DNA of 64,000 nucleotides from Iphione sp. A-MEVVRFRX5 (Eukaryota): contig OZ320317.1 in assembly GCA_976226885.1 (NCBI GenBank), positions 55,242,001 through 55,306,000 of the forward strand, in the 5' to 3' direction. Position numbers and translations under genes: made by a program. Of this stretch, positions 28,070-59,200 are shown in pieces. Positions within the stretch are counted from its first letter, which is position 1, and every line of letters starts with the position of its first letter. The notes under the pieces are model-generated. The model made no database searches. It worked only from the letters and a program-made list of their open reading frames with translations, and was not told where the DNA came from.

Positions 28070-29134
28070 TCATTTCTTACTACTCTTTGACTCCTTTGAT
28101 TTGTCAACATTATCAATGTTACTAGGACATTCGAAAGCTTTGTGATCAGAGTTACCACAAACCAAGCAGGCATGTTTGAAGGCACAGGACGAATCACTAC
28201 AGGTACCATTATTGAAACGATAACACACCTTTTCACTCTTATGAACGCTGTCAGCAGCTTTACGTGGCTTCACTCTATTTTTACTGTTTGCACCTTGTTG
28301 CGCTCCGCTCAACATCATATCAAAAGAGAAATGCGATCTAATGAGCTCATCATCACCAAACTTAAACTCTGACAAACCCTTCTTGCTGGCTCTTTTCCGC
28401 ATGTCAGCATCGTTGTCAATAAAAGATGAGTCTTTATAAACGTTTCTCACCCTTTTCTCAAGCAAAAACAACAAATGGTCGACGTAACCGGAAATGTCCT
28501 TCTCCTTTTTAAGGTGCCGCTTCAGCAATTTCATCGATCCAAACATAAGCTGGTCAAAATGATCGATCTTTTTCAATTTAGCAGCATATTCGATGTCAAA
28601 GTCTCTCTTCTTACCCTTTGACCGTTTTCTCTTTCTTTTCGTCTCCTCCTCAATATCAGAGGACAAAGAATCATCAGAACTAGTTTCACTCGGCACGGCT
28701 GGACCAGGCACTGGCGTGGAAACATCAACATCCGCCTCCTTCGACAATGATGACGGAGCCATTTTTGTACCACTACCATTACCATTCGAAGCCAGGAAAG
28801 CAGAGAACATAGTCTCCAACCTTCCCATCCTGTTAGACAGGTCCAAGATATCACCACTTTCAGCCACAGGAACAGACATTTCTGCCCTTTGCATACCATT
28901 CGTAGTAACCGGAGGTAAAATACCATTCACAACATCGAAATCCTTCGAAGAAACATCCTCAACAATGTTGAGATCCAGTCTACATTTTTTCCCCACAGGG
29001 GAAGCGTGTTTGCGATCACACCTGCAACAATATCTCGCCATAACCAAGCCAGTGAAACAACACGTCCACCTCCTAAGAAAATTCAGAGTGGAATAACGGT
29101 TAGTAACAATATGTTCCTTTGGTCGATACATCAT
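28070..29134 (-). CDS. gag: Ngaro ORF1/gag-like protein (likely start MARY at about 29041)
   Basis: N-terminal CRCDRKHASPVGKKC and C-terminal CYRFNNGTCSDSSCAFKHACLVCGNSDHKAFEC zinc-finger motifs typical of DIRS-order ORF1. Confidence 0.8.
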   Translation of the reverse strand: MMYRPKEHIVTNRYSTLNFLRRWTCCFTGLVMARYCCRCDRKHASPVGKKCRLDLNIVEDVSSKDFDVVNGILPPVTTNGMQRAEMSVPVAESGDILDLSNRMGRLETMFSAFLASNGNGSGTKMAPSSLSKEADVDVSTPVPGPAVPSETSSDDSLSSDIEEETKRKRKRSKGKKRDFDIEYAAKLKKIDHFDQLMFGSMKLLKRHLKKEKDISGYVDHLLFLLEKRVRNVYKDSSFIDNDADMRKRASKKGLSEFKFGDDELIRSHFSFDMMLSGAQQGANSKNRVKPRKAADSVHKSEKVCYRFNNGTCSDSSCAFKHACLVCGNSDHKAFECPSNIDNVDKSKESKSSKK

Positions 29135-30731
29135 AGATACAGGTAGCGGTTGTCATGTGGATACGCTATGTTGTCTTGGTATCCAAACAATATTCAAATA
29201 AACACCTTATTCGACATATATATAAACCATATTGAATGGATTTCGGTTACACAGGTGTGGAAATATGCAATCACAACGTTTTCATCAAGGTAGAGCAACC
29301 GTTTGAAATGGTATTTAGTCAGACAACAGTCATTAAGTGACACTATGGGAGAAAGCCAATCATTACAATGCACCTAAATCCTTAAACATTGTACATATAC
29401 TTTGTTTTATCAATTTAGGTATGTATTCCATATACAGCTGAACCCCATCAGAGTTGCAATATATTCTCATTAATCAGACCCTAACGAAATTACCAATTAT
29501 TTTACACTTTAAAATGTACTACATATCTGGCATTTGCTATCCATAACCATAATGTATTTCAAGCCATTTAAACTTAATTTATATAGAAAATAATCATAGT
29601 TAACCGGATGAGGGAGAATAAAGAAACTGTTAGGCATTAGAGTGTGTATATACAGTACAATGGAAGAGACAACAGAGCACAGAGTGAATAACAATGGTTA
29701 AAAGTAACATACACATGCAGGAAATATGGGCTGTGACATCCTAAAGGAAGTGACAACACAGCGTGGAGTGACTAACATAGGTTAAAAGCAACATACACAT
29801 GTGCGACATGCAGGCCATGGCCTCCTATAAGAAGAGAGGGCAGAGCAACCAACATAGGTTAAAACAGCATTAATTTCTTTACTTTCTACTTAAAAGGGTT
29901 GTACATTTTACTACTATGCAAGTTTTCCCTGCCAGAAGATGCATGGATAGCGATTTCGGCAACCGGATGTTTCATCATCTGTACAAAATAATGGAGGTAC
30001 TCTGGTTAATGCGGTTTGCCTGTAATTCTGTTTGTATGGAATCATTATCACATTTAGTAATATTGACAACACATTTTTGTTTATATCTAAGGTACACAGA
30101 ACTGAACCCAGTTGTAATGGCAAGCATGTCTTAGACAGGGTTCGAACTTCACAATTACCCATTGGCCATTATTTTGTAATTTTTTTTACTGTGTGAGTCA
30201 ACATGTGTTTGTCCCAGGTAAGTAATTGGGAAAATTTATTTTTCGAACCTAGCTTTCAGACTGAGGAAAACATCACGTAGGCCAAAATCAATCCGCTAAT
30301 TGTTTTAGGGGTCAATGTTAAAAAAGCACTTTCACAACAATAATAGTATTTTTGTACAGCACTATATTGAGTTCCCTGCTAAACTACATTTTTAAAAAAA
30401 GACTAAAAACAAGATCCACCTCGGGGCTAGGATTTTCGGAATTATCTAGATAAGACGATTCTATGTACCACTGCTGACTTCCTCTGATTTTTAGTATGCT
30501 CTATGCCGGTGCAACACTAAATCTGACAATAGTGATCAGCTTCTCAACATAGTTTGCACAGATTTCTACTCTGGTTTTAACGTATACCAGTCACAACTTC
30601 TATAGAAAGGTTCTAATTGAAAGGTTTTTGATTCATCATCGAATAACAGTCCTGATAGTGTAGACATTATCAGAGAATAACATTATAAGACTTAATTGCT
30701 CATTGCTCCTAATAACAAAACTATGCCTGTT

Positions 30732-33351: not shown

Positions 33352-34988
33352 CTACTTGTTGTACGTGATGTTGAAGGTGCAATTGTTAAGAGTCGGTGAC
33401 CCCGAGAAAAGGGTATGCAGGATTTCTTCGTTCTTCATAGTATTATGGACTTTATGGACCGTTTGTGTCAGCGGAAAGTCCATATCCGAATCGCCTCCAC
33501 CGCATGCTGCTCCTGCCGACTCCATCTTGATTACCGGCTGACCCACTTTTTCTGGATCAGCTGTTTCACTCTTACTGCCCGCACCATACACGGATAGTGC
33601 ATTCGACATCGTCTTTTTCACGATTTTGCTCGGACTACCCAAGTAATGCTTGAGAGAGGCAGCATTTTTGTGGCCCGTAACTGATTGGATCTACTCTACC
33701 GAAAACCCAGCACGCTCCAACGTTGTCACGCACGTTCGGAGTATGGTGTGGTTAGTGTACTTTTTTGAAAGGCCCGCCTCCTTGCTCATTGTGGCCATCA
33801 TGTTGAATAAGGTGTTGATGCCCACCGGACAGTTGTCGTACCAAGATTTCATTCCTGAGTCGATGAACTTTTTTGGCCTTTGGAAAAACGCATCACAGGC
33901 CGGGTTCAATAGATCCACGTACTTCTTGAAACTCGCCACCGGACATCGACGCGGATCTTCAGGTAGGGCGTACATTGTTTTTTCAACGTCCTCTTCGTCT
34001 TTTTTTAGGCCTGATCTCGTTTTTTCCTGTTCATTGTAACTCATTGTCACAAATTCAAGTCCCGCTGCATCCGTTTCGATTTTGAAAGAGTTGCGTTTCA
34101 GGTAACGCAACCCCTCCCTACCCCTTCGTCCGAAATGAAATAGTAACTCGAAAAACACTTTCCTCTGCAGTCCGGTCGGGGTGTCATTGAAAAGTCTCTC
34201 ATATAAGAGTGAAACATCTTCTGGTTCTATCACTGGCTTGTGACTCGTTTTATCGTTCCCGGTCCACCGGATGCGGGCCATATAGCCATCATAGGCCAGG
34301 TTGGCTTGTCTGAACGCACTGTCTTTCATTATGTTGATATTTCGGCAGAAAGGGGGTCCGACAAGATGACGTTGAATCCCACAGCGTATATTCTTGTAAG
34401 CTGACTTCGAGTACATTTCCAGATCCTTTTTTCGTACACCCGTGTAGAATCTCTCCAGAATGCCAGCGAGTTCACTATCACCGATACCCTCGAACTCCAG
34501 CAGGAGGCCCACATCCGTCAGCCAGTCTGCAAAAATAATTGCACTAAACATTACTATAGGTTATTTCAGGGTGCCCCGCCCCCTTCAAGTAAATACATAT
34601 GGCAACAATACAAACCTTGTAGGATTTTTACAGCCCACTTAGTCTGGTTGACTGTTCCTTTGCGGTTAACTTCCTGCTTTAGCGCGTTCACCTCCTCCTC
34701 TGCTGGCATATAAAAACGACCACTACCAGCCCCCTTAGGTTTTTTCTCAATATTTTCGGAATTCTCCTCCAGATCCATATCTTCTACCGCCAACAAGTCT
34801 AGTCCGATGTTGAAAGTTGGCACCGCCTCACGCTCCAGTTCATCACAGCGTACCGAGTTCTTCTGTCCCGTTAGGACATCCTGTACGTCGCACACATCCA
34901 TTTCAAAACCTTGTGGCCGATATATTTCGGTTACTTTTACGTTCCGTCCATATAAATGGCATATTTCGCCCCTCTTTGGTAGATCCAT
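33352..34988 (-). pseudogene. Crypton DUF3504/KCTD1-like tyrosine recombinase gene, 2 exons (34988-34616, 34526-33352), with in-frame TAG at 33691-33693
   Basis: Intron 34527-34615 (G|GTTTGT...TTTTTGCAG|) joins TKWAVKILQ-D-WLTD. Motifs FYTGVRKKD..Y, HFGRRGRE, CPVASFKKY, WYDNCPVG, YTNH, then after the stop IQSVTGHKNAASLKHY (catalytic H/Y) and C-terminal LNNCTFNI. Confidence 0.88.
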
Positions 34989-36380: not shown

Positions 36381-38325
36381 GATTGATTGATTGATTGATT
36401 TCTTTTATTGAGCCTCTCCGTATACAGAGCTGTTCTCGCACAATATTGATGAACAACAGGATGTACAGAATAGATTCAGTATTGGTTTTGTGTACCATTG
36501 CCACGCATTGCAAAATAAACTTCGTATACATCAATCACGTGTTTCCAGTCATCATAACACCCTTGCTTAAGAGATTCATCTGTGTCAGTAGCATATGTTA
36601 ACAGTGTCCCAGTCTACAAAGATTCAGGCAGCTACATACCAGTCCTGCGCACACTTTGCTATGTATGTAAATTGTCCATATACCTTGGGTTTTGCTAGTA
36701 TCATGTAGTGTAGTGCTGCACATACTATCTTGGAATAAGTTACTTCAGTAGTTACATACTTCCACGTCTCATTGTCTGTTTAGGACTGACTCAGCCTTCG
36801 GCACATTGCACAGGTATCGTTGCACTTTGTGTAGTCATCTCAGGAAATAGACCAGATAAGCTCGCTTTGTCACATCAATCTGTGGTCAAACCCTTCAAAT
36901 ATCCAGTAGACCAGAACAACCCACGGTTGCATTACCCCACACAGTACATAATGTCAACGAGTGTCACAGTCTGTCCAATACCTGTCATGTTGCCCCCCTT
37001 CAGCATCACAGTGTGCATCCCATGGCGCTTAATTGCACTGGCTGATCCGGTTTCCTGTTAGTTTCTCCAACTTCTTGAGGCCCTGGGGCAAACCATTCCA
37101 CATTTTTGCCCCCTCATACCTCAGAGATCTTGCATACGCACTGTTTTTGGGTTTCGCCAGTTTGACTCGCGGACCAGTCCCCGTCCTTGTCTGGTGTCTG
37201 GTAGCCATCGGAAACTGTCCGTGGGCGACCAGTCGGTGTACAACCGCCAGCCCCCTAGTGCGGATGATCTCTTCAACCGTCCCAATGCGCAGTATCTCTC
37301 TCAGCCTGACTGCGCTTAGGAAATCTCCCACCTGAAGTGCCATTCTCGAGCACCTATTCAGGTGTATCTGGAGATCTCTGATCAGCCTGGGTTTGCACCC
37401 GAAGTAGACTGATCCATTGTAATTCAGGTGACTTAGTACCAGTGCTTTAAACAGGATGGCGCGGCACTTCATCGGGATTATCTTTTTTGCTCTGGCCAAC
37501 ATAATTGATATCCCCCATGCTTTGGCCTTCACCTGCTTCACACTACTCCTGAAGGTTAGCCCCGGATCCACCAGGTACCCCAGGAGGTTCAGGTTTTCCG
37601 GCCGTTGGATTTTTTGACCGTTCACTGTGAGGTCTAAGTCGAACTTGCTTGCTCTGCCAAGCGCAATGTACTGGCATTTGGCTTCGTTTAAAATGAAACC
37701 ATTCTCATTGCACCAGTTGCTCACCGTCCTTGATGCTGTCTGCGCTACAGCGCGCAGGCGCAGCATGTCACCAGAAGAGCAAACCACAGTTAGGTCGTCC
37801 GCGTAGAGAGTTCCAGTGGCCCCCACAGGCAAGCTCCTTACAATGGAATCCGCAGCTAATGTGAAGGCCAAGGGGCCTAGCACGGAGCCCTGCGGGACTC
37901 CGTACTTGAGATTGCGCACCATTGACTCCCCCTCTCCGCAGCGCACAAACTGGCGCCTGCCACTCAGATAACTCCGCATCGTTTCAATCCATCGACCACC
38001 AATGTTCGCATCCCTAAGCCTCTGGAGTATCAGTTCGTGCTGCACTAAGTCAAAGGCCTTACTAAAGTCGTACGCAATAGCGCACACATAGCGGCCGTTG
38101 TTCATCTCATCCCAGCATTTTGACAGGATTCCGTTTATGGCGGTTTCCGTGCTACGGTTTGGCACAAAACCATGCTGGTGTGCGCCAATAATGCCTTGCT
38201 GAAGCAAGAACGGTCGGAGATGCTATGCAAACCAGGTTTCCCATAGTTTGCCTGGCAGTGGTAGTATTGACACTGGTCGGTAATTACCTACCACTGCCGC
38301 ATCTCCCTTTTTATGTACCGGCAAA
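36381..38325 (-). mobile_element. 5'-truncated CR1/L2-group LINE (RT region, 3' UTR, (AATC)5 tail)
   Basis: PVHKKGD..NYRPVSILP (in-frame TAG at 38223-38225), QHGF, YDFSKAFD, GVPQGSVLGP, YADD, LLGY, C-terminal WNGLP (ORF 37029-38207). Minus-strand AATAAA (36404-36409) is followed by (AATC)5; linking the tail to this copy is inferred. Confidence 0.85.
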
Positions 38326-41289: not shown

Positions 41290-42702
41290 TCATCCCATCT
41301 CTGAGGGATACAGGTAGAGCGTTCCAATCTTAGATACCAGTGTTTATAAAGGATTGGGCATATTTGACTGTCCTAGGCTTCATTTTCATGAGCACCCTAC
41401 CTATACTGTGCCTTGCAGTCCTCAGTCCCTGCTTAGTAAGCCTTGATCTACCATTCTAGCTTTAAGACTGATTCTCTGACTCCTTCCCCTATCCTCCAGG
41501 GCCTCAAGACCCAGTCTCCTTCTCAGGTGCCTAGCTGAAGCTCCCCCTTGGGTTATTGGCTACTACTAGGCTAAGGCACCTATTATTCACCTTGGATTTG
41601 ATATTTGGTTTTCTTGCTATTTCCCTGTAGGCATAAGAGCCCATAGTCGAAGATGGGGCATAGGAAAGCCTTAAATATACGTGTCCTATCGTTATAATTC
41701 AACAAATGAGCGACCTTCGCTAATACCACTGTCCTATGTTTTGTTTTTCTCTTTATCCCATTAGCTAGAGCTGCCCAAGTCAATCCTTGGTCGACTCTGT
41801 ATCCCTACAGATCTACCTCTGTACATTTCTTTAACTTTATCCCACTGTACCTCCAAGTCAAGGTCGATCGGACTAGACTTCCCCAAAAAGATGTACTGGG
41901 TTTTCTGGGTGTTGCGTGAAAGCCCCTGATCTCCACACCATTCTATGATATCCTTTATAGTCCTAGCCAGTTTCAGCTGTAGGGCAAGGATAATGCTCGT
42001 GGAGCAGTAAACAGAGATGTCTGCATAAATTACAGAGTCGAGTATGATCAGACTGGCTGGTGTCAAATTTACTACAAGTGAGAAGAACAGTGGGGCCAGA
42101 TGACTCCTTTGTGGCACACCTACCTTTAGCTCTCTACGAGATGATCTACAATTGTTGCAGCTCATGTACTGACTCCTTCCTATTAAGTATGATTCAAACA
42201 TCTGAGCATAGTGTTGCCAACTCCACAGCTCATCAGGCAGTGCGAAACAACTTGATCAATAAATCAAACGCTTTGGATAAATCAAACATGATTAATCCGA
42301 AGTATTTACCCTCATCGACCGAGGTGCTTGTAGAAATGTTGCAACCACTGTACTAGTCTCCCCCCCTTGTCGGCAACCGTGTTGGCTGGGGAGAAAAAAT
42401 TCTGTTCCTCCAGAAAGGCTACTAGCTGTCGATGTGCTAACCTTTCAATTAATTTCCCCACATATGGGATTATGGAGAATGGACGGTAGTTTTTTACTGT
42501 TGTACTAGCTATTTTTTCAATATAGGACTGACCCCAGACGCTTTCCACTCCTCCAAGAAAATCCCTTGTCTTAAGGAGATATTAATTAGTCTATATAGAG
42601 GGATCAGGTAAAGTAATAAAGCATCTCCCAGCACTATGGAGGACACCCCCTTCATTCCAGTAGGTTTTTTAGATTTAACCTCATCAATTCCTTCCTTAGT
42701 AC
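41290..42702 (-). pseudogene. Degenerate CR1/L2-like LINE ORF2, 3' part (split by the Gypsy insertion)
   Basis: KNYRPFSIIP..KLIERL, FESYLIGRSQ..GVPQRSHLAPLFF, YADIS, C-terminal SF..WNALP; many stops and frameshifts. Confidence 0.8.
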
Positions 42703-43577
42703 TGTAATTAGCGTGTTTAATTCTCCACTTGGCAGTATCCAGCTATGACTGCTAGTATCCTGGCTTAGTTGCCTTACTAGTATTGCTCCACTAGGTAATC
42801 CTCAAGCCCACCCTTAAGGTTGCTCCAAGTGGTTTTGTGTTCCTATCATTCCCTGAAGAGACAAGTGCCACAACGTAATCCAAGTTCAGACTGACTTTAT
42901 TTGCCACACTGGGCTCTTATTTATAGCAATCCACAGTGTCATGTGATCAGGCCATGTATCAATGTATGGAATAAAACTGCTACAACATGTTCAGTGTCAC
43001 TCTGTTCCACCAATCAATGCACAGGCAAAAGCTACAAAGTAATAGGGGCCTGGATTACCAGGGCCCAAGGTCACCCCTAACTTTTTCTTTGCTATGAATA
43101 ACGGTGGTGCCACGGTTCTTTCTTAAGTCCAGCCTTTAGGGTCACAGAGTGCACCTAATCTAGCCGTGGCACCACGACTTATCTTATTCAACTGTAATAC
43201 CGAGGTCACCGAGTACATCTTATCAAACTGTGGCACCACGACTCTGTACACTTATTACCAGTACCAGGGTCACCGAGTACACTCCATCTGGCCGTGGCAC
43301 CACGATTTATCTTATTCAACTGTAATACCGAGGTCACCGAGTACATCTTACCAAACTGTGGCACCACGACTCTGTACACTTATTACCAGTACCAGGGTCA
43401 CCGAGTACACTCCATCTGGTCGTGGCACCACGATTTATCTTATTCAACTGTAATACCGAGGTCACCGAGTACATCTTACCAAACTGTGGCACCACGACTC
43501 TGTACACTTATTACCAGTACCAGGGTCACCGAGTACACTCCATCTGGCCGTGGCACCACGACTTATCTTATTCTACA
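42703..43577 (-). repeat. 3' LTR (875 bp) containing a 128-bp (2 x 64-bp) tandem array
   Basis: Matches 52889-53763 with 2 substitutions seen by eye. Confidence 0.97.
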
Positions 43578-43590
43578 CTCTCCCCTCCTT
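43578..43590 (-). promoter_or_regulatory. Polypurine tract
   Basis: AAGGAGGGGAGAG directly abuts the 3' LTR. Confidence 0.9.
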
Positions 43591-44072
43591 AAAACACAGT
43601 CCCCCTCGTGAAACAGGAGTCAGGGTACTTACCATCTAGCCGGGCATATCGGGGAGTCCTCCTTCAACTTCTGGGGTAGATATAGTCTTATAAGTTGTTG
43701 GCCCCCCCCCCCCGTGCTCCCTGATTGGGGTCAAACAGTCCATCCTTGAATAGATACTCAGGTTTCAATTCTTCCTTATTTTTGTGAGGTACAGTCCTCT
43801 ACTTTTGGCCTTAACTCTCTTGTGTAGCCACCCCTCACAGAGGGTGAAATCCAGTGGTCAAAAATTTTTTTTTTTGGAGGTACAGTCCTCTTTTGTTTCC
43901 TGCTCACGAACATCCAGAATAGCAATCCCCCATTGGGGGCAGGAGTACAGCTTGCTTACCAAGCAACAAACAAAGAACCTTCAAAATATATTTCTTTTTT
44001 TTTTTTTTTTGGATACAGTTCCTTTTATGCTTTCCTTCTAAAAGATTAGCTTAACAGTGACTCATCCCTTCT

Positions 44073-45464
44073 TTACTCTGTAGAACCTTCTCGGGCGTCA
44101 CCCGCCTCGGTGCTTAACTCCTCCTCTTCATCATCTCCCCAGACGTCCTCAAGACTGAGGAGGGACTGCAGGGGCGGCGCATGGTTACAAATGTCCGCTA
44201 AGGTGGGGTGTCGGGCTTGATGAAGTCGATGAGCCTCCTGGGCCTGCTGGGTCCACTGGAGGAGCTCTGTGTTTACCCGGCGGGGTCCTCGGGAGGGTCC
44301 GGGTTGGGTGTCGCGCAGGGCGGCTTCGGCGGCTTCAATGGTTTTGTTATTGCGAGTGAGGAGGTCGGCCGGGTCCCCCCACTCGTTGGCTGTCGGTATT
44401 TCCAGTCCCGGCAGCAGAAGAGCAGGTCGTTTTCTTAGGGGGCCTAGCAACGTCCCTGGCAGCCGGTCCCCCTCCTCGGCAAGCTGAAGCACCCACGCCA
44501 GCGAAGCACTCGTCATCATGCGTTGAGCTGGTGTCATCTCCCCCCAACAGGGTGGCGGCCAGGTAATCGTCGGGGGAAGGCGCACAGCCGCTGGCTCGAA
44601 ACGGCTCCTCATCACGGGTATCCTCGGATGGGCGACTCCATCCAGCATGTCGCGGACTAACCTAGTGGCGGGGTCAACCCACCCAGGGGGGACGTCCGCA
44701 CGGGCGAGGCGGACCAATCGCCCTTCCAACAACAGTGGGAGGTTACCAGCAGCAGTTGGGTGGTCGGTCTCTCCAGTGGCGCCGGTATCCCTAACACCGA
44801 CCCCTTCTAGTTGGGCAGTGGCACCTTCTGGCTCGGCGGATGGCCCGGCCCGAGGAGCGGCCTCCCAGGAAGGGCCTGGCTGAGGTGAGCCAACAGGGCG
44901 GTGGGCATCCTCTTCGGAGTCCGGTGTCGGAGGTAGTCGTGGGGTTGCCAATTCCAATGCCCTTTCAGGTTGAGGATCAGCTAGATGGCATTTCCGTAGC
45001 GGTAGAGGGGCCGGGGCCCTCCGCGATGAGGCAGCCAGCATGGCCTCGGCTTCCTCTGGTCCGAGGTAGTCTCCCCGCTGGCGTAACTCTCGGGCCCACA
45101 GAATAATTTCGGTGATCTCGTCATCGGGAGCCTCAACTGTCGGCGCCGGGTTCGCATCATATAAGCGGCGATAGGGGCGCTCCACCATCCCCAGGTTCAC
45201 CGCCCATGGATGGTACCGGCGGTGGTGGGATACCCAGGTTTGGTCCTCGCTGAGTGTCTTCGGACACAGAAAACAACGGACAAAACGCCTGCGCTTTCCT
45301 TTATGAAATTCGTCGTCGTGGCGCTTCATGGAGTCGCCAGGGTAGAAGGGGCGTCGCTTCCCAGCGACCTCACACTTGGGGCAGAGCTTGGTCCCCTCCG
45401 GGAGGGGGTCGTCCTTGTCCAGGGTGCGCGGGAGAGTGGGGCCGTCGATCTTATGGCGAGGCAT
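44073..45464 (-). CDS. Gypsy accessory ORF (463 aa from ATG 45464): two N-terminal C2H2-type zinc fingers, Pro/acidic middle region, acidic tail
   Basis: CPKC-x17-HDDEFH and CFLC-x12-HHRRYH. The intact 1.4-kb ORF sits at the env position but shows no signal peptide or TM segment. AGA-ATG context. Confidence 0.8.
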   Translation of the reverse strand: MPRHKIDGPTLPRTLDKDDPLPEGTKLCPKCEVAGKRRPFYPGDSMKRHDDEFHKGKRRRFVRCFLCPKTLSEDQTWVSHHRRYHPWAVNLGMVERPYRRLYDANPAPTVEAPDDEITEIILWARELRQRGDYLGPEEAEAMLAASSRRAPAPLPLRKCHLADPQPERALELATPRLPPTPDSEEDAHRPVGSPQPGPSWEAAPRAGPSAEPEGATAQLEGVGVRDTGATGETDHPTAAGNLPLLLEGRLVRLARADVPPGWVDPATRLVRDMLDGVAHPRIPVMRSRFEPAAVRLPPTITWPPPCWGEMTPAQRMMTSASLAWVLQLAEEGDRLPGTLLGPLRKRPALLLPGLEIPTANEWGDPADLLTRNNKTIEAAEAALRDTQPGPSRGPRRVNTELLQWTQQAQEAHRLHQARHPTLADICNHAPPLQSLLSLEDVWGDDEEEELSTEAGDAREGSTE

Positions 45465-46305
45465 TCTGGCCGCGGTGCCACCGTTTTTTAGGGTCCAGGT
45501 GTTTCGGGGTACCACGGTCACACACGGCGAAAACAAGGTTTAGGCACACAGATCCCGTGTAGATTACGTATCACAGGAGAATAATAACAATCCTGGGAGG
45601 GCAATCTTATTCAAAGTGAAGGAATTACCTGACGTCTCACGACCGGTCCGCCCGTGGTGCCACGGATTTTTCTTGTCGCTTCGCTGGGGCTCGATGTAGG
45701 TTTTCTCCTCCTTCCACGAAATTGGCAGATAGATCTTTGCTTTCACCTTTTCCTGGTACAGAGTTGACCGGGGGCCCTGTCTGTCCTGTTCCGGGAGAAA
45801 CACGGGAGGGGGGGGGGACAAATCCAACAGTCGATGCTGATCTTCTGGAGCAAACCGTGGTGCCGCGACTTCTCCCAAAGTTTTCGTTTTTATTCGCAAA
45901 CGTTCCTGCCCGTGGCACCACAGTTATTTTAACCCTTTTCTTCTCTTTACGCGGTTTAAACTTGTCGTGCGTTAATTTTAAGTCACCTCCACCCTTCACT
46001 TTTATCCGTGGCACCACGGCTATTTTTCCTCGCAGCCGGATCCAGAGCGAGGCAGACGCGGATGTTGACGTTATCCATTTCCGGCCCAGCCCCACTCGTG
46101 GTGCCACGATTCGTTACGTGATGTTCTTCCTGTAATATTTCCTGTCTCAATCCACAAAAGTTCCCCGGGGCGTGGCACCACCGTTATTCATGACTTGTTC
46201 CTCCTCGTTGCGTGTCGAATCCGTTTCCCCGCGGCGTAGTTCACAAATTGCGTCATAAGATTTTCGGCCCGTGGCACCACGATTATTTTTCTGGCCTGCG
46301 GCAGC

Positions 46306-46313
46306 TATATAAG
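46306..46313 (+). promoter_or_regulatory. TATA box of the antisense gene inside the Gypsy
   Basis: TATATAAG, an Inr-like TCACTC about 30 nt downstream, then Kozak ATC-ATG-G at 46373. Confidence 0.7.
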
Positions 46314-46372
46314 GGGGCGCTGCACTCGACCCGCCGTCACTCGCTGACTCGGCCTCGACGAGGATTGTCATC

Positions 46373-46766
46373 ATGGACTACTGGCCACCTGCCTACTTGA
46401 TGGGATACCCCCCCATGGAGGACAGGTAAGCTTCCCTACCTCAGTGTATTTATCTAGAGGGGTTAACTGGAGAGCCCCCCCTCTTGCTTCCTCCCTCCCA
46501 GGGTAGGGCCTACCCTTATGGTTGGGGGGTGAACCTCCCCCTTCCTCCCTCCAATGGGGTGTACCTCCCCTGCAAGCCCCCCCTTTCCTGCTCACCAGTG
46601 GAGGTTCTCTCCTTTTACCCTTGCCTACCAAGTGTTGTCAGAGACTTTACCTGTTGGGATGGTTGCAGTTGTGTTTGCTGTTACAAGATTCCACCCTCTC
46701 TTGTTTTCAGGTGTGGCAGCCATATTCTCCCGGAGTTGGTCTGGGTGAGTCCAATCTTCTTCTTCC

Positions 46767-46804
<38 letters not shown>

Positions 46805-47541
46805 CATCGCTGCTCTCTTCCTCTTTTAGATCTCAGCCCCCGGACTGGTACTACCGGGCGCTGGACATCGGCACCCCGGGGCCGACAATCAGGATCTTCG
46901 GCCTCTACCCGATTCTTACAGAGCCACTGTTTGTCCCAGCCCCCGGCACCATCCGGCTCTTTGGGCCGAACCATCGGGTAGATGTCTCTGTCTACCCCCT
47001 TGAGCCATCAGTCGTCGACCCCCGATCTTTCACGTCACCTTCGTCCGTTCCAAGGAGCCCGTAATACGCGCCCCGCACGGAAGTGGTCTCCCCGGAGATC
47101 AGCCCCTGGATGGTAACATCGTACTTCACCACGCTGGGTGATCCCCCCGAGCCGTCTCCTCGCTGGTACCGGGGGGGGTCTATGACGCCGCCCGGCCTCT
47201 CACCGGCCGCTTCATCCAGCCGTTCTTGGTCTCCAGGGAGCTGGACCACCGACCGGTTGGACCCCTGGGATCCGCTCTCCAGTACGGACTCCGGTCGCCC
47301 GAGTTCGGCCGGGTCTATCAGCCTGCTGGCGGACGCTCTCTTCGGGCCGTGCTCGCCCTCATCTTCTTCCAGTGGCACTACTCAAGACACGCCTTCACGC
47401 CCCACTCCGGTTGGCTCACCGGCTACCGGCCCAGCACTCGGCAGGATTCTGTTGGATGACCTGCCCGACGATATTCTGCGGGACTGGTTTCCCGAGGTGC
47501 AACCCGGGGACTCGGCCAGCTATCCGATCATCTTAGAGTAG
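46373..47541 (+). CDS. Antisense spliced accessory gene of the Gypsy (exons 46373-46425, optional 46711-46744, 46830/46837-47541); Pro/Ser-rich product of about 255 aa with in-frame TAA at 47062-47064
   Basis: Donors AG|GTAAGC and TGG|GTGAGT; acceptors TTGTTTTCAG| and T-run..CTCTTTTAG|. Exon 1 + exon 3 gives MDYWPPAYLMGYPPMED-R-SQPPDWYYRALDIG..., in frame with ORF 47083-47541. Confidence 0.62.
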
Positions 47542-47650
47542 GGAGGCCGGACTATATACTTCCGAACTGTACATATCATACTTCCGAACTGTACATATCG
47601 TCCTCTAGTATATGTGTTCTGTACTCCAGACTGAAAATACGTTACTCTGT

Positions 47651-47656
47651 AATAAA
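47651..47656 (+). terminator. Polyadenylation signal of the antisense gene
   Basis: AATAAA 110 nt after the TAG, followed by a GT-rich downstream element (TGTGTTCAGTGTT). Confidence 0.6.
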
Positions 47657-48397
47657 TTGTTCTTTTATACCTTGTATACTTGTGTTCAGTGTTCCGTCTA
47701 TTACTGTAGACTATAACTCACTGGTTTTTTACTTGGTGATCATTGACCGTCTTTTCTCCCCTTCATCTAGAGGACAAGGACCTCACCTTGGCTTCACTTC
47801 TAGAGGATATGGAGCGTGACTTGGCTCTTCTTCTACCAGAGGACAAGGACCACATCTTGGCGTTACTTCCAGAGGGAACGGCCCGCATCTCGGTTTCCTT
47901 CTCTCTGTCTCTTCTGGGCTCTTTCGAACTCCCGTTCTGAGTTCCAGGAGGTCCACATCTCCTTACCATTTCCCCCCCAACTCCTCTTGACCAGTGCTCT
48001 TGCAGGGTGTTCAGTCATTTTCTCCCTCCACGGAGATTTTCAGGTGCCCTAGGGGATGGTCGCCTCCCCCCATGAACCTTTCCGGGTTTCCAGCTCGCGT
48101 CTCGGGGCGTTCATCATTCCTCCCCCAGGAGCCTCTTTCTCTTGTTGCACAAATTGCAACTTCAGGTGAGCTCCTCGTACCTCCGACCATATTTCCGGCA
48201 CCTGCAGGGATCCGTGTCTCCCTCTGCCCTGGGCTGTTTTGAGTGTCTACGCACCCTCGGGCTGCCCACCTCGCCCTCTCCTGGGACTTTCAGGCATCTT
48301 GGTACCTCAGGCTTCCCATGTCACCTACCCTGAACATTTTTCAAGAGCACTTCAAGAGATGGGGGTCTCCCGTTCGCCGATTCGCCGAGGCATCTTT

Positions 48398-51300
48398 CTA
48401 TAACCCCTCCTCCTTCGAATCGTCTGTCCCTGCCCGGTCTCCGTCCGTCGGGAGATGGGCTCGCCGCCAACTGACTATCCACCGTGGTAGATTCCCACTG
48501 CAGTAGCGCCGCAAGCGGTTGCAATGAACTACCTTCGGTCTCGCCTTTCGCGTGCGTTGAACGACATACCGTGCATCGTCCAATCGTTTGACAACCAGCC
48601 AGGGTCCAACCCAGGGGAAGTAGGTCTTCAGGCTTTGGCCTCTTGGGGGTTGGGCTTCGTGTAGCCAAACGACGTCCCCTTCCCGAAGTTGAGTTCCCAC
48701 GACCCTCCGGTCGTACGCCCGTCCCTGGGTCTTAGCAGCTCGTTGGAGATGGTGTCGCACGGTCTTGAAAGCGACTTGAAGTCGACGACTCACTTCAGCT
48801 ACCCTCTCCGGGAGGGGTCGCTCATCGGGACAATGTTGCGGGAACCCAGCCCAGGCATGTACCGGTAGCACGACCTCTCGTCCGAACATTAGGAGGTTGG
48901 GGGTATACCCCGTACTAGATTGCGGGGAGGCCCTATATGCCATCATGAGGTAGGGTAAGGCCTCATCCCAATCGTTCTGTGTCTCATAGCAGTGCGCTTT
49001 CACCATGCGCCCAACAGTGTGGAAACTCCTCTCTATAAATCCATCGCTCTGTGGGTGACGCGGGGTCGTACGGGTCTTCTTAATTTCCAGAAACTGGCAG
49101 AGTGCTGTTAGGACCTCACTGCAGAAGTTCGTGCCCTGGTCGCTGTGGATTTCCAAGAAGCACCCATATCGCAAGATAACTTCCTCAGCAAGGAGCGTAG
49201 CCACCCGGCCAGCCTTCTGGTCCGGCATGGCGAAAGCCTCCAACCACTTCGTAAAATGGTCACCCACCATCAGTATGTATTTGTTTCCCCGCCGAGTCTC
49301 AGGCAGGGGGCCGGCCACATCCATGGACCACCTCTCCATTGGTTCTCCCGGCAGGTAGGTCACTAATGTCGTTTGGGGCTTGTACGGGTTGACATTCAGC
49401 AGGGCGCAATGACAGCGGCGGCAGAAGGCCTCAACCTCTCGCCTCATCCCAGGCCAATAATAGGGGAGGGCAATCAGGTAGGTGGTACGATCTGTTGCCA
49501 AGTGACTCCCCGTGCGACCTGCATGCACTTCTTTGATGGCTGCATCTCGTCGGCTGGCGGGGAGTATAACCTGTAGCCTAGACGGCTCATCCCCGATCCC
49601 ATACCAGCGGCGTTGTAGGAGTCCGTCATGCACCACTAGCCGGTCCCACTGTCTCCAGAGGGCTTTAGCGCAGGCGGGCAAAGCCGAGACCTTGTCCCAC
49701 AAGGGCCGGTCATTCTCGTTCTCTTTCAGTCACAGTACAGGCCCTATTGCTTCGTCTAACAGCTGCTCCCGGCGCAGATCTCGTGAGCCAGCGTCAGTGA
49801 TTTGACTTCGTGTGACCACCCGTACCGTGGCTGATATGGGCTCCTCTCGCTCCAGGTGAGGCTGTTTGCACTGTCTGCAAATGCGCCGAGAGAGCGCATC
49901 TGCGTTTGAATTCAGGCGACCGGCCCGATGCACGAATTGTACTTGGTACTGGCCGATTCTCTCCAGCCATCTGGCTAGTTGTCCCTCAGGGTCCTTTATC
50001 CTCGTCAGCCAGCTCACCGCCCCATTATCAGTGCGCACAGTGACGTCTTGCCCATACAGGTAGAAATGAAAATGCTTGAGTGCGGCCACCACGGCCAGCA
50101 GTTCCCTTCTCATGACGCAGTACCGCCGCTCGGCCTCACTGAGGCTCCTGCTGAAGTAAGCTAGCACAACTTCTTCGCCCGACTGCTCTTGAGCCAGGAC
50201 GGCCCCCAGGCCAACATTGCTGGCGTCGGTGTCCAGGTAATACCTGCCTTCTGCATGAGGATAACCAAGGACCGGGCTGGTGCTGAGTGCGCGTTTGAGG
50301 CTCTGGAAGGCAGCCTCTTCTTGGGAGCCCCAGGAAAATCTTACTCGTGAGCTGGTCAGCCGGTTAAGCGGGGCTGCTAGATCGGCGAACTGGGGAACAT
50401 GTCGGCGATAGTAAGAGCAGATCCCAAGGAAAGCACGGACGTCTGTCGTGCATCGTGGGGTTGGCCACTCAATGATGTCTTTTGTCTTCACAGGGTCAGT
50501 AGCTACTCCTTTTTGCGACACCACATGGCCTAGAAAGCTGACTTCCTCTAGGAACAACTGACACTTCGTAGGCTTTAGTTTCAGGCCGGCACTGGCGATG
50601 CGGCTCAGTACATGGTCCAAGCGACACAAGGTCTCGTCAAAGTCCCGACCAAACACCAGAATGTCATCCAAGTACACCAGGCATTGTTCCCAGGCTAAAC
50701 CACGAAGCACAGTGTCCATCAAGCGTTCGAACGTGGCCGGAGCATTCACCAGACCGAATGGCATTACGGTGAACTCATACAGGCCCACAGACGTAGAAAA
50801 GGCCGTCTTCTCTTGGTCATCGGGGTGCATTCGTACTTGCCAGTACCCCGACGCCAGGTCTAATGAACAGAAATAGCGAGCTCCGGCCAGGGTACTCAAT
50901 GAGTCGTCAATTCTCGGTAGGGGGTATGCATCGACCTTAGTCTGCTGGTTGAGCTTTCGATAATCTACGCAGAACCGGGTGGTGCCGTCTTTCTTTCGCA
51001 CCATGACCACTGGGCTGGACCAAGGGCTATTACTCTCCTGTATCACCCCCAAAGTCTTCATCTCTTGTACTAGCTCCCGCTCCTCCTTCCTGCGTGTCAA
51101 CGGGAGGCGTCTGGGAGGTTGCTTGATGGGGTGGGGGTCGGTCAGGTAAATTCGGTGTTGAACGATATCGGTCCTCCCCAGGTCCCCCTTTGTCTGCGCA
51201 AACACGGCCGCATGTTTCCTGAGCACCTTGGCTAATGCTTCTTGTTCTTCTTGCTCCAAGCGCGGGGCGGTCTGAGCTAGCAAATTCTTTAACACTGCTT

Positions 51301-52054
51301 CCACTTCCCTCCGAACAGCACAGACTCTAGCCGAGTACCCTCCTTCTTTGTTCTCTAGGCAACTGGCAGGGTAACCCATTGCCACCAGGGTACCCTGCGT
51401 CAATGTAACTTCTTGGTTTTGGAGATTCCACAAAGGTAATGCAGTTCTGACAACACTTCGAATCCCAAAGATCCCTCTTCTCAATTGGTCCTCCTCTACT
51501 CCCTCCACTAGGAAGGCATCACCACCCCCATTAGTTAGAGGGACTGCTATCCCCTCTCCCGGGGGAAGGGTAACGTCATGGGCTAAACGCAAAGGGACCC
51601 GCTCTCCCAGAATCTGTCGGGCTCCTATCCCCGGGCCAAATCGAACCCTCCCCTGTGCTAAATCTATAACTGCCTGGTGTTGGTTGAGGAAATCACTCCC
51701 CAGTAGACCCTCTTCCCCAATGTTGGCAAACAGGAAAGGATGAGTAAACTGTTGACCCGCTATCTCAACCTCCAGAATCTCTCGGCCCAATGTGGGAATA
51801 ACGTGCCCCCCTGCCCCAGTAATACGGACATCCCCGCCTTCACCATCTAGGCCAGGGACCACCCCCGGGTTAATAATGGAAACTTCAGCCCCCGTGTCAA
51901 TGAGAAACAAGTATTTGTCACCCCTCACGCTTACCTGCAAATGTGGCCCCTGGCCTTGTTCCATTATCTGCCCCGTAGGGGTCTGTTCAGCCAAGCCCTC
52001 CTGGCCTACTGGGCTGGCTGCTGGGCGTTTCCCTGGGTAGGGGCCTGTGGGCAA
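48398..52054 (-). pseudogene. pol: Gypsy Pol (PR-RT-RH-INT) with a single in-frame TGA at 49730-49732 upstream of the integrase
   Basis: LIDTGA protease, YLDD RT, DTDAS RNase H, integrase D (SMDVAGP), D (HSDQG), E (GFIER) and GPW motif. ORFs 49730-52054 and 48398-49702 are in the same frame. Confidence 0.93.
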
Positions 52055-52857
52055 TCCCGCTTAAAGTGGCCTTGTTGTCCACATTGGTAGCATCCCGTAA
52101 ATCGCGGTTTCCGAGGTTTTCCCTCCTCCTGGGCCTTCTCTCCTTCACGGAACTTGCGTAATTCCTGCGCAATGATCTCCTCCACTTCCTTCTTCCAGGT
52201 CGGAGTGACTGGGGGAGCGGGCGGCTGTTGTACCACATTAACTGTCTTCGCCCGGAACCGCTCTTGGGTTTCCACCACCTGGATAGCATTGTCAAGGGTG
52301 GTGCATTTTGCTTCCAGGCATTTGAGATGCAAGGAGTCCGCCAAGGCCCTCTGAAAGGCCGCCACGGCTGCCAGTTCCCTGGTCTCCCCGGTTACATCGG
52401 GATAAGCTGTGCGAACTAGCCTCCTTACCCGGTCGGCCAGGTCTCGGATGTCCTCGTCCTTCTGTCGTCTCACTCCGGACAGTTTCTGCATCGCTACCAC
52501 CCGATCCCTGCGTCGGCCGAATCGCCGCTCGAGGGCTGCCACCCTTGAGGCGTAATCTCTCTTGTCATCCGCGGGTAGGTCTCCGTAGAACATGCGTGCT
52601 GTCCCGGTGAGCGACAAAGTCAGAGCCGAACATTTGGTATCCTCGCCCCAACGGCATGCGTCCGCCCACTCGGAGAATTGGCCAATCCAGCTGTCCCAAT
52701 CAACAGTCTTCCCATCGAAGCGCTCGGGTTTCAGGGTGTTCATCTTCAATGGCTCCTCTGGGGCAATCTCAAAGTGTTCGTCTTCTTCCTCGGCGGGTGC
52801 AGGACTAGTCACCCGAATCTGAACCTCATCATCCACTGAGACATACGCTGTAGCCAT
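52006..52857 (-). CDS. gag: Gypsy Gag (283 aa)
   Basis: KPERFDG..W..W..QF capsid-like start; CYQCGQQGHFKRDC zinc knuckle. Confidence 0.93.
   Translation of the reverse strand: MATAYVSVDDEVQIRVTSPAPAEEEDEHFEIAPEEPLKMNTLKPERFDGKTVDWDSWIGQFSEWADACRWGEDTKCSALTLSLTGTARMFYGDLPADDKRDYASRVAALERRFGRRRDRVVAMQKLSGVRRQKDEDIRDLADRVRRLVRTAYPDVTGETRELAAVAAFQRALADSLHLKCLEAKCTTLDNAIQVVETQERFRAKTVNVVQQPPAPPVTPTWKKEVEEIIAQELRKFREGEKAQEEGKPRKPRFTGCYQCGQQGHFKRDCPQAPTQGNAQQPAQ
52027..52033 (-). promoter_or_regulatory. -1 ribosomal frameshift slippery site G GGA AAC with a downstream stem-loop (51988-52020)
   Basis: The heptamer is in the gag frame inside the gag/pol overlap, pol is in the -1 frame, and a 6-nt spacer precedes CAGCCAGCCC...GGGCTTGGCTG. 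Confidence 0.8.
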
Positions 52858-52867
52858 CCTGTCTGGG

Positions 52868-52887
52868 GAATCCCACTTCTGACACCA
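52868..52887 (-). promoter_or_regulatory. Primer-binding site complementary to the 3' end of tRNA-Leu(CAA)
   Basis: TGGTGTCAGAAGTGGGATTC begins 1 nt after the 5' LTR. The eukaryotic tRNA-Leu(CAA) 3' end is GAATCCCACTTCTGACACCA. Confidence 0.9.
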
Positions 52888-52888
52888 G

Positions 52889-53763
52889 TGTAATTAGCGT
52901 GTTTAATTCTCCACTTGGCAGTATCCAGCTATGACTGCTAGTATCCTGGCTTAGTTGCCTTACTAGTATTGCTCCACTAGGTAATCCTCAAGCCCACCCT
53001 TAAGGTTGCTCCAAGTGGTTTTGTGTTCCTATCATTCCCTGAAGAGACAAGTGCCACAACGTAATCCAAGTTCAGACTGACTTTATTTGCCACACTGGGC
53101 TCTTATTTATAGCAATCCACAGTGTCATGTGATCAGGCCATGTATCAATGTATGGAATAAAACTGCTACAACAAGTTCAGTGTCACTCTGTTCCACCAAT
53201 CAATGCACAGGCAAAAGCTACAAAGTAATAGGGGCCTGGATTACCAGGGCCCAAGGTCACCCCTAACTTTTTCTTTGCTATGAATAACGGTGGTGCCACG
53301 GTTCTTTCTTAAGTCCAGCCTTTAGGGTCACAGAGTGCACCTAATCTAGCCGTGGCACCACGACTTATCTTATTCAACTGTAATACCGAGGTCACCGAGT
53401 ACATCTTATCAAACTGTGGCACCACGACTCTGTACACTTATTACCAGTACCAGGGTCACCGAGTACACTCCATCTGGCCGTGGCACCACGATTTATCTTA
53501 TTCAACTGTAATACCGAGGTCACCGAGTACATCTTACCAAACTGTGCCACCACGACTCTGTACACTTATTACCAGTACCAGGGTCACCGAGTACACTCCA
53601 TCTGGTCGTGGCACCACGATTTATCTTATTCAACTGTAATACCGAGGTCACCGAGTACATCTTACCAAACTGTGGCACCACGACTCTGTACACTTATTAC
53701 CAGTACCAGGGTCACCGAGTACACTCCATCTGGCCGTGGCACCACGACTTATCTTATTCTACA
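52889..53763 (-). repeat. 5' LTR (875 bp)
   Basis: Offset 10186 bp from the 3' LTR; TGTAATTAG...TTATTCTACA. Confidence 0.97.
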
Positions 53764-54400
53764 GTACATCTTCCCTCACAGGCTCTTCCATCTAATCACC
53801 AGTCACTTCGGCACATAGAGTTGCTTTCGGGGGATTTGCAAGTGCTAGCGACCTAGTGGCTGTGACAAAAATGTCTGGTGCGACATGAGAGTCGATTTCC
53901 TCTCCATCTTCAAGCAGTCGAATTGGTCTGGGTACTTTTGTTACCTCTAACACAGTTCTATTCAGTACCTCCCAATAGTCCTTAGAGGACCTACATGATG
54001 GCAGTTGTTTCCCAACATGAGCACATTTCACTTTTCTAATTTTACTCCTCACTAGGTTTTTGTAGAATTGCTAACTCGCAAACTGTCTATGCACCCCTCT
54101 GATCTATAGACTTTATTGTACGCCTGTTGTAGTGAGTATAGCCCTGTCAACCATAACATCATGCAGTGACACTGCATAATGCATGCCATATACACCATAT
54201 GCATGATGGATACTTCACGGGAAGGCACGATGGACATGCATATGGATTGGGATGGTCTTCAGACCTTGGCCTCTTGGTTGAAACCATGTGACACAAGGCA
54301 CTCCAATTGACCGATCGCTTTTTGTGAGTGACAGTTGAGTCTAGCCAACCACAGCACATCCTACAAAAAGCGTGGGAACCTTGAGCATAGACAAACAAAG
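53764..54400 (-). pseudogene. Degenerate LINE ORF2, upstream (EN-RT linker) part, continuing across the Gypsy insertion
   Basis: FYKNLVRSKIRKVK..KDYWEVL linker-like segments. Sequence on either side of the GTAC duplication reads as one LINE. Right boundary approximate. Confidence 0.6.
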
Positions 54401-56933: not shown

Positions 56934-59200
56934 CTAGTAATCCTTACATGATAGATCTAGTGATAATATTTTAATACACTGATTGAACTCATGTGGGTCT
57001 GTAATATTCCTAAATAAGGGATCGAGCTTGTTCCAGAGATCAGCACCCATATAGATAGCACTGTTTTTATACAGATTACTCTTGGGTGTTTCTTGTTTTA
57101 TAACTGGACCATCCATAGACCTAGTGCCAGTATCAGATTTGAGTGGTAAAAGGTTAATATTTACCGACCTAAACATTGTGTCGAGCATAAAATAACAGCG
57201 TCGAGTATAGGTACTTTGAACTCCAAGGTTTTGATGTAAGTCTCTGGTACAAATGCCACGTGTCTTTAAGTATCTTTTAGATTACATTCTAAATATAATC
57301 CTCAGTGCCCTGTTTTGCATGATTTGAATCTTATCCAGCATCTTCTTACTGCAGGTTGATAGGTAGATAGTACGGTTGTCAATGATTGGTTGAATCATGA
57401 CTTTATAAACGGTTAGGGCTACATCAGGAGGAATGAATCCTTTTACCTTATTCAGGAGATACATCTTAGTTGACAATTTTTTGCATAAAAGTTTTGCCTC
57501 ATGCTCGAATCTAAGTTGACTATCTAGTGTCACACCTAAATATTTGTAGGTTTCAACTTGTTCAAGCATCTTATTATACAAGGTAAGTACTAAATTATTG
57601 TCTTGTTTTCCCTTTTTGTTGCTAATTAGCATAACCTTAGATTTGTCCGTATTAATAGCCAGTCTGTTGTGGTTGCACCAGTTCTCAACTAAGGTGCAAG
57701 CTATACTTAGTTTCCTGTTGAGTTCCTCTAGTGAGTTGCTCGTGGTGTAGATCACAGTGTCATCTGCGAAAAGTACAGCCAGTTCATTAATGAACCTGGT
57801 TATACCATTTATGTATAATGAGAAAAGGAGTGGGCCTAAAGTTGAGCCCTGAGGAACACCACAACTGATTGGCAGGGGGTTTGAGAGCACTCTGTTACAC
57901 AGTACTCTTTGCTGTCTACCACTCAGGTAATTTTCAAACCAATCGTGTGCCGCACCATCTATTGCAAATTCCATACGTAACTTATCAAGTAGGATACCAT
58001 GATTCACAGTATCGAAGGCCTTTTTTATATCCAGAAATAGCAGACCTGATAATTTGTTTTCATTAACAGCAAGATATTGATCATTTAATACTTTAATGAT
58101 TGCAGAATGCGTAGATCTCTGATGTCGGAATCCAAATTGGGCCTGAGATAGCAGTGAATCTTCTTCTAAGTATGCATGTAGCTGATTATATATTAATTTT
58201 TCAAGGATTTTGGCAAATAATGGCAGTAAGGAGATTGGCCTGTAGTTGTTTGGGTCCAGTGATGAACATGACTTATGAAGTGGAATAACAACAGCCGATT
58301 TCCAGGCATTTGGAATTGACCCAAGCTGAACTGACTTGTTTAGTAGCCTTGTCAGTTGGTTGATTGATTGACCCATTATGATTTTTAAGAATCATGTATT
58401 GATTTCTGGAACGCAGGATGCCTTGTTGGTATTTATTTTCTTGATTAGATTAACAACATCATTGCAGCTAAACTCAGTTCTATGAATGCTGTTGGTATTA
58501 GTCTCAGAAGAATGAGATTGAGCAGTATAAGATGGGAGTGGGACAGAGTTCATGATGTTTCGACCACACAAGGAGAAGTGTTTGTTAAATGTTTCAGATA
58601 CTGTGTCTCTCATATCATCATTATTGTGAAGTTTTATAGTATTTTTACTACCTTTGCTGATTCCGAGAATTGGTTTTAGATTTTGCCACATTTTTCCCGG
58701 ATAATTCTTATTTTTATTAATCACCCTCTTTATATGGAACTCCTTGTGCAGTCTCATGCTTTTTATTATATCATTACATAATTTTCTCGAAATGTTCCAG
58801 GTGTCTTCATCTTTTCTCTCTTTGGCCTTTTTAAGATAGTAGTTTTTAAGTCTTATTTGTTTTATCAATTGTTTTGTAATCCATGGATTTGTATTATTTT
58901 TAAAATTACAACTTTTTGGGGGAAAGAATTTGTCAGCTGTTGAGTGTATGTTATTCAAGTAGTTTTCCCAAGCTTTTTCAATATTGTTATTGTTATAAAG
59001 CTGATACCAATTTAATTCATTCAAGTAGTCACGTAGTTCCAGAGTGTCATAACTCTCATACCCTGTTCTATAATGTATACGACTGTTACTCATATTCATT
59101 GATGTGTTTTTAGTTTTTTTCTTAATAATAGAAGTGGCATAGTGGTCAGATAGATTAATTCTGAGGACACCCGTAGTACTTATGTATTTTATATTCGAGA
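56934..59200 (-). pseudogene. CR1-group LINE ORF2 (EN C-terminus, linker, RT, C-terminus) with nonsense mutations
   Basis: LSDH endonuclease motif at about 59150; NPWIT, NYRPISLLP, QFGFR, DIKKAFD, GVPQGSTLGP, FADD, YLGV, WNKL. ORFs 58392-59099, 57282-58376 and 56934-57188 are one frame broken by TGA (58392) and TAA (57282). Confidence 0.9.

Follow-up and report, generated by a model that had tools for sequence, protein, structure and literature searches.

LTR retrotransposons are taken to rely on host transcription factors, self-encoded trans-activators being characteristic of complex retroviruses, and C2H2 zinc-finger proteins are familiar chiefly as a means by which hosts counter transposons. 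Additional ORFs downstream of pol have already been described in the Gypsy group. They include GDSL and DEDDy ORF3s in rotifer Gypsy-type elements (PMC5408684), an AlkB ORF in an orchid element (PMC9289625), an extra ORF in planarian Burro, whose polyprotein also includes a RING-type finger (PMC6431247), and additional ORFs in both sense and antisense orientation in plants, including Grande gene23, RIRE2, and Retand (PMC7264820); the antisense brtn gene of Boty is cited in PMC8365987. The element considered here is like the described ones in having an extra, family-specific sense ORF between pol and the 3' LTR, usually a separate spliced unit, and unlike them in its cargo, a C2H2 protein with a new C-terminal domain. 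In the portions of the rotifer (PMC5408684) and Burro (PMC6431247) papers covered, the terms “C2H2” and “zinc” have 0 occurrences. By term look-up, “zinc” is absent from the covered portions of mollusc, annelid, and metazoan element surveys (PMC6238403, PMC8556966, PMC8220671, PMC13524379, PMC7943196), and those of PMC11952523, PMC2774666, and PMC12477816 hold nothing relevant to a C2H2 ORF3. A search of the mainly open-access literature, in its main texts, found no paper on C2H2 ORF3s in Gypsy elements, though Repbase, Dfam, and GyDB entries may record some. The finger-ORF3 family in animal Gypsy elements is real and apparently undescribed, the new part being the C2H2 cargo with its undescribed C-terminal domains.

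The window (the whole 64,000-nt stretch of DNA analysed) contains a Ty3/Gypsy LTR retrotransposon, recognised by its paired LTRs, target-site duplication, gag, PR-RT-RH-IN order, primer-binding site, and polypurine tract. The nearest named proteins to its pol come from arthropods, fish, frogs, and amphioxus. Its main features are:

53764-53767: target-site duplication GTAC, upstream copy
42703-53763, minus: whole Gypsy element, 11.06 kb, LTRs 99.8% identical
52889-53763, minus: 5' LTR, 875 bp, with TG...CA ends
53111-53104, minus: TATAAATA in the 5' LTR, a promoter element by sequence only
near 53078, minus: initiator-like TCAGT in the 5' LTR, identified in the same way
52870-52887, minus: primer-binding site, 1 nt past the 5' LTR, which we take to be of tRNA-Leu type
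52006-52857, minus: gag with one CCHC knuckle (PF00098, E 3e-6)
52033-52027, minus: slippery-type GGGAAAC at the gag/pol overlap
48398-52060, minus: pol, order PR-RT-RH-IN, in the -1 frame relative to gag
49730-49732, minus: single in-frame stop in pol
43578-43590, minus: polypurine tract
42703-43577, minus: 3' LTR, 875 bp, 2 differences from the 5' LTR
42699-42702: target-site duplication GTAC, downstream copy

An earlier note on this DNA had pointed to an ORF that stays open although pol carries a stop. The stop is real, but with LTRs that differ at only 2 of 875 sites few nonsense changes are expected since insertion (~0.07 in ORF3, ~0.17 in pol), so the contrast between an intact ORF3 and a broken pol carries no information. 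Intactness as proof of selection was dropped for the same reason, the element being too young. Its flanks are decayed mobile elements, and no host zinc-finger gene or host synteny was found in them within the window. Remnants of non-LTR retrotransposon RTs lie at 37029-38222, 41640-42700, and 57282-59225 (minus strand), and the Gypsy element is inserted beside or inside one such remnant. Farther off are a DIRS/Ngaro-like element at 24954-29219 (minus), with a CCHC gag-like ORF, RT-RNase H, tyrosine recombinase, and split direct repeats (assigned by eye), and a DUF3504 ORF resembling Crypton-type recombinases at 33691-34560 (minus; Pfam E 3e-11).

ORF3 lies inside the LTRs and is inherited along with pol. 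The env position assigned to it by the earlier note holds in that it is within the LTR element, but it does not directly follow pol: from the end of pol at 48398 to the start of ORF3 there are 2.9 kb, occupied by a second gene on the plus strand. The reading frame is open for 463 codons, as reported, from an ATG at 45464 to a TAA at 44073 on the minus strand. The stop-free stretch containing it, 488 codons, is longer than any found in 1000 base shuffles of positions 44001-45600 (median 151, maximum 436).

44073-45464, minus: ORF3, 463 aa, with two C2H2 fingers, disordered linker, conserved C-terminal domain, and acidic tail
45303-45383, minus: finger 1, aa 28-54, C28-x2-C31-x17-H49-x4-H54, helix -1 to +6 PGDSMKR
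45210-45275, minus: finger 2, aa 64-85, C64-x2-C67-x12-H80-x4-H85, helix -1 to +6 EDQTWVS
44310-44657, minus: C-terminal “WPP” domain, aa ~270-385, common to the related loci L101, L105, and L260
45466-45629, minus: possible 5' intron of ORF3, with donor CAG/GTAAT at 45629 and AG at 45467-45466

Judged by Cys2-His2 spacing and hydrophobic core, ORF3 is a C2H2 zinc-finger protein, with both motifs at the spacings first described. All four Cys and both first His residues are invariant in the 16 aligned rows (16/16), though a Pfam scan of the window left the fingers of ORF3 undetected. Tramtrack (2drp), CTCF, and Zif268 share with it the paired beta-beta-alpha fingers, the conserved Cys and His, and a hydrophobic residue at +4; ORF3 differs in its longer finger 1 loop, non-canonical linker, atypical finger 2 helix, and complement of only two fingers. 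The finger 1 helix has D at +2 and R at +6, while in that of finger 2 neither -1 nor +6 is basic. Basic clusters are found at 36 (KRR) and 57 (KRRR). The Pro-rich middle and acidic end of the original description are both present, with 19% Pro in residues 151-245 and 30% D/E in residues 421-463, and its “possibly helical region” falls in the conserved C-terminal domain, which has no sequence match in Pfam or PDB.

That ORF3 is not an Env was also borne out. A diverged env-like or fusogenic protein might be suggested by its location after pol and by acceptor-like sites ahead of the ATG in related elements, where 11 of 25 have such a site 0-12 nt before an in-frame ATG compared to 32 of 1002 control ATGs (3.2%). 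The window ORF3 itself fails the strict acceptor test used on these relatives; ~125 nt without AG precede the AG adjoining its ATG. The sequence however refutes this reading, which has virtually no probability left: ORF3 lacks both a TM helix (best 19-residue hydropathy 0.62) and a furin site (R-x-[KR]-R), its N-terminus is hydrophilic as judged from the sequence alone, and the env-like ORFs found in three other elements (L178, L225, and L245) are wholly different and branch elsewhere. ORF3 has one N-glycan sequon.

A model of the finger region, built from an alignment with 15 relatives, has two hairpin-helix (beta-beta-alpha) units at pLDDT 82.8, so the zinc-finger fold on which the earlier reading depended is present in it. 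Because the alignment rows were picked on the finger motif, the model is consistent with the fold and is not independent proof of it. The Foldseek check proposed earlier gave matches that are mostly zinc fingers but weak, the best being Tramtrack at E 0.45, and a second fold comparison was also weak (best Z 2.6); ubiquitin-binding and Serrate/ARS2 fingers are equally weak among these matches. The family finger profile matches CTCF/ZNF568-type and other classical arrays at E 2e-30. Of 43 fingers, 28 have R or K at helix position +6, and those of L187, L188, and L194 read R-x-D-N-x-x-R, which we take to be the pattern of DNA-binding fingers. Outside the fingers modelling gave little, with pLDDT 38 for a single-sequence model of full ORF3 and a score of 0.00 for a homodimer of the C-terminal domain modelled without an alignment, the domain's own fold being uncertain.

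Relatives were sought among 161 loci gathered by pol similarity. A sense C2H2 ORF is found 3' of pol in 28 of the 161, four of them near-copies belonging to one family. The starting set was 35 ORFs with a finger pattern after pol, from which 28 loci were retained and seven ORFs discarded as chance patterns (L110, L208, L210, L218, L221, and second frames of L203 and L207). With a strict finger pattern, matches were found in sense orientation at 21 of 70 loci and in antisense at 7 of 70; this count leaves out L104, L115, and L142, where the end of pol was misassigned, the 21 include L218, which resembles a GIY-YIG fragment, and four of the seven antisense matches come from one near-identical family. 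At five loci from two families (L184, L191, L192, L193, and L195), the finger ORF sits between both LTRs. By Pfam, 4 of 18 relatives score above the curated C2H2 cut-off and 10 of 18 have a C2H2 family at E <=0.05.

Profiles from which the window was excluded lead back to it. Among 1268 window frames, the ORF3 fingers come out on top with the finger profile (E 4e-5) and ORF3 aa ~295-365 with the C-terminal one (E 5e-6), and the C-terminal domain of ORF3 was also recovered among 23,960 frames at E 4e-6. L260 was retrieved through the WPP domain alone, and its layout proved to be gag-pol-ORF3; the domain is present in 1 of 10 contaminated genome bins scanned. A 47-row tree of RT-RNase H sequences groups the window with L101, L105, L185, and L260 in a single clade (support 99/96), and other types of ORF3 C-terminal domain likewise track pol subclades. 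The cleanest evidence is that of the four full WPP members, as L185, L188, and L194, which are truncated, were assigned from their N-terminal portions. A larger, quick pol tree has fingers in 28 of 41 scored rows of a 57-row group versus 1 of 21 outside it, but the support for this group is only 85% and the careful 47-row tree leaves the deep backbone open, so the deep pol tree does not establish a single origin of finger ORFs. A subclade holding the named arthropod pol proteins has no ORF3 in its scored members.

ORF3 is under purifying selection in these relatives, with dN/dS of 0.18, 0.20, and 0.25 in the three unsaturated pairs of eight (five are saturated) and approximate Fisher p of 1e-6 and 0.003 for the first two. 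In sequence, the family proteins consist of one or two N-terminal C2H2 fingers, then a disordered linker, then a C-terminal domain whose type varies between subclades. The three closest relatives of full length lack the acidic tail, terminating in a basic/hydrophobic L-R-L motif, and the candidacy of the tail as a family activation domain was rejected. Of the transcription factor-like layout proposed earlier, the C2H2 fingers are real, but the tail is not conserved and finger 2 is without the usual basic contacts.

These comparisons indicate that ORF3 is not a one-off capture but belongs to a family kept by many related Gypsy elements. A recently captured host zinc-finger gene, carried as a passenger, is largely refuted and very improbable. 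Its one attraction is that the only match to ORF3 among 1.84 billion representatives is a host-type, generic multi-finger protein (E 2e-6), but this match covers just aa 9-89, the fingers only, and lacks the retained host synteny that the earlier note had named as grounds for refutation. Homologues of the whole layout reside in pol-related elements, the C-terminal domain types follow the pol tree, relatives show purifying selection, and no host gene flanks the element; no full-length host orthologue was found in protein searches or in the flanks. Word-based protein searches with ORF3 gave no match, nor did viral and metagenome contigs scanned with ORF3 or viral contigs scanned with the integrase or C-terminal domain. 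A paired-motif scan of viral contigs picked out 97 stretches, none of the 80 listed having >2 pairs, and these were taken as chance. The ESM Atlas returned hypothetical proteins and some low-share C2H2 families for ORF3, with a recognition value below the mark, and nothing for aa 260-430. ORF3 is best read as an accessory gene that one broad lineage of animal Gypsy elements has long retained, and its product is probably a selected, nucleic-acid-binding accessory protein. A C2H2 gene retained across deep divergence by a Gypsy lineage, its C-terminal domains exchangeable, would put this fold on the transposon side, and could be a mobile source of finger genes.

What such a protein does is less clear. 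In one relative, L207, two C2H2 fingers lie in a single 3079-codon frame with pol (2012-11248), ~300 residues past the integrase and followed by ~1000 residues more. This, with the position of the ORF3 gene, always 3' of the integrase, would suit an integration-targeting or particle-associated factor whose fingers would hold the integration complex at chosen DNA, much as the chromodomain does on chromovirus integrases but as a separate protein. L207 is however the single such case among the 28 and branches away from the others, ORF3 is elsewhere separate and often has its own acceptor, and the window copy lies within a decayed non-LTR element, where no motif is close by, making this an unlikely role.

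The gene between pol and ORF3 runs in the opposite direction:

46306-46313, plus: TATATAAG, putative TATA box of the antisense gene (ORF4); the nearest copy of the GTGGTGCCAC motif (below) is 26 bp away
~31 bp downstream of the TATATAAG box, plus: TCACTC
46373-46425, plus: ORF4 coding exon 1, from ATG 46373, ending CAG/GTAAG at 46425
46830-47541, plus: ORF4 exon 2, after TTTTAG (acceptor 46829), in phase with exon 1, Pro/Ser/acidic
47651-47656, plus: AATAAA in AT-rich sequence past the gene

This is a complete-looking predicted gene at 46306-47656, spliced, with its own TATA box, and diverging from ORF3 across a shared 908-bp spacer. ORF4 has a stop at 47062-47064, after 95 codons in total, and the same frame then has 158 further open codons. 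GC content is 0.59-0.65 in the exons, 0.49 in the intron, and 0.37 in the sequence 3' of the gene. No homologue was found in Pfam, PDB, or the 161 loci; LLDDLPDDILRDWF of ORF4 has what we take to be an F-box-like look, unsupported. The plant antisense ORFs and brtn (PMC7264820, PMC8365987), as far as described in the covered portions, are similar in being antisense genes between pol and the 3' LTR with their own promoter, while ORF4 is in an animal element, is predicted to be spliced, and stands head-to-head with the finger gene, with no homologue found.

The spacer shares with the LTRs a 10-bp near-palindrome, GTGGTGCCAC. The window contains 21 exact copies (eight in the 3' LTR, seven in the 5' LTR, and six in the spacer) plus three with one mismatch, where ~0.03 per element would be expected. 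All are restricted to the U3 regions and the ORF3-ORF4 spacer, with no copies in the 52,939 bp of the window outside the element. When repeats are collapsed there are 10 independent contexts, versus 0.59 expected for the 8-mer core.

53290-53745: GTGGTGCCAC array in the 5' LTR U3, seven exact copies and one with a mismatch, mostly in a 64-bp tandem repeat
45472-46280: internal GTGGTGCCAC cluster between ORF3 and ORF4, six exact copies and two with one mismatch, in both orientations
43104-43559: GTGGTGCCAC array in the 3' LTR U3, eight exact copies

The 5' LTR array lies about 210-660 bp upstream of the inferred start. One copy is part of a 21-bp exact match between the LTR (43094-43114) and the spacer (46171-46191), which suggests copying between the two.

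This arrangement resembles that of foamy virus Tas (Bel-1) as set out in the covered portion of PMC3185757: an accessory regulator 3' of pol, a second accessory gene nearby, and the same cis sites at U3 and at an internal promoter, here GTGGTGCCAC, with promoter activity that is presumed from the features above. The window element differs in having no env, a Gypsy-type pol, C2H2 fingers, and accessory genes that are divergent and not tandem. By analogy the GTGGTGCCAC layout fits a Tas-like feedback loop, the copies being candidate sites. ORF3 might then be made from a separate mRNA, spliced or internally started, and its product would enter the nucleus, bind DNA through its fingers, and regulate transcription of the element, by activation or by relief of silencing. 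The likeliest target in the window element would be the GTGGTGCCAC array, in U3 and at the divergent internal promoter: low basal ORF3, whether internally initiated or translated from a spliced message, could act at the spacer sites and then at U3. A near-palindrome with two 6-bp halves would suit a dimer of a two-finger protein.

The favoured reading, in which ORF3 is an element-encoded DNA-binding regulator acting on the element's own transcription, has roughly even chances. That it binds GTGGTGCCAC is a more tentative proposal, the motif being a candidate target. With finger 2 lacking basic residues at both -1 and +6, the G-rich GTGGTGCCAC does not follow from the recognition code, and binding is made less sure by the finding of a comparable motif in only 1 of 25 finger-carrying relatives. 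This one (L167) has a strongly enriched 8-mer, versus none of 25 controls, a difference that is not significant, and many of the 25 were without full LTRs in this test. L167 is a one-finger element with 12 copies of GTGACCGA in 5 kb, in independent contexts and also within pol (0.74 expected); L229, without fingers, has 13 copies of GAATTCGA (0.66 expected). The complete LTRs of L184, L191, and L193 have no 6-8-mer array, and a general rule across the lineage of each element carrying its own motif was rejected. GTGGTGCCAC itself occurs three times in 1.3 Mb of relatives, with none in the closest clade. The partial text of PMC5735166 describes a similar pattern for VANC of Arabidopsis VANDAL elements, a fast-evolving element-encoded protein whose dense short motif, partly in tandem repeats, is found in non-coding parts of one family and is absent from relatives. 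VANDAL elements are however plant DNA transposons with motifs mostly in one orientation, and there the theme recurs across families, unlike the lineage considered here, in which most relatives lack an array and each family does not have a dense motif of its own (1/25 vs 0/25).

An alternative is a role directed at the host, in which ORF3 has no site in its own element and would instead influence silencing by the host, or host genes, either by binding host promoters or by contacts with protein, RNA, or ubiquitin/SUMO; the GTGGTGCCAC array would then be an enhancer for a host factor. Such a role would be in keeping with the 24 of 25 relatives without a self-motif, the atypical finger 2, the ubiquitin-binding and Serrate/ARS2 fingers among equally weak fold matches, and the IVVDLTD end of the L184 ORF3, which we take to be a SIM-like motif. 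The pol-ORF3 spacer of L185 (8052-8145) also has a cluster of TGACGTCA-type TGACGTC(A) sites, presumably host CREB/ATF sites, so host factors can account for such clusters. The host-directed role is harder to reconcile with the canonical base-contact residues in the fingers of many relatives and with the absence of GTGGTGCCAC from 52.9 kb of flank and its placement at exactly two promoter regions, and on balance seems somewhat improbable. The fullest form of the regulatory reading, that a widespread, envelope-less lineage of animal Gypsy elements encodes a C2H2 regulator, which here binds a near-palindrome in U3 and the divergent promoter and switches on itself, ORF4, and the genomic RNA, is possible but rather doubtful. 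If true, a switch of the complex-retrovirus type would have arisen independently in Gypsy elements, using a fold that hosts employ against transposons. The window element makes the question testable by supplying the protein together with a candidate site of 10 bp and two candidate promoters, and should the binding idea fail, the ORF3 family and its undescribed C-terminal domains still stand.

Other ORFs and loci encountered among the relatives may be mentioned. Eukaryotic Gypsy elements (L179-L258) are found in many bacterial and archaeal genome bins, most likely as host DNA binned with symbionts. More distant pol relatives have env-like ORF3s with basic cleavage-type sites (L225 at 13769, L178 at 5808, and L245 at 5199). 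In L229, a Gypsy element with both LTRs, pol is followed at 9873-10496 by an ORF that by eye resembles histone H3/CENP-A.
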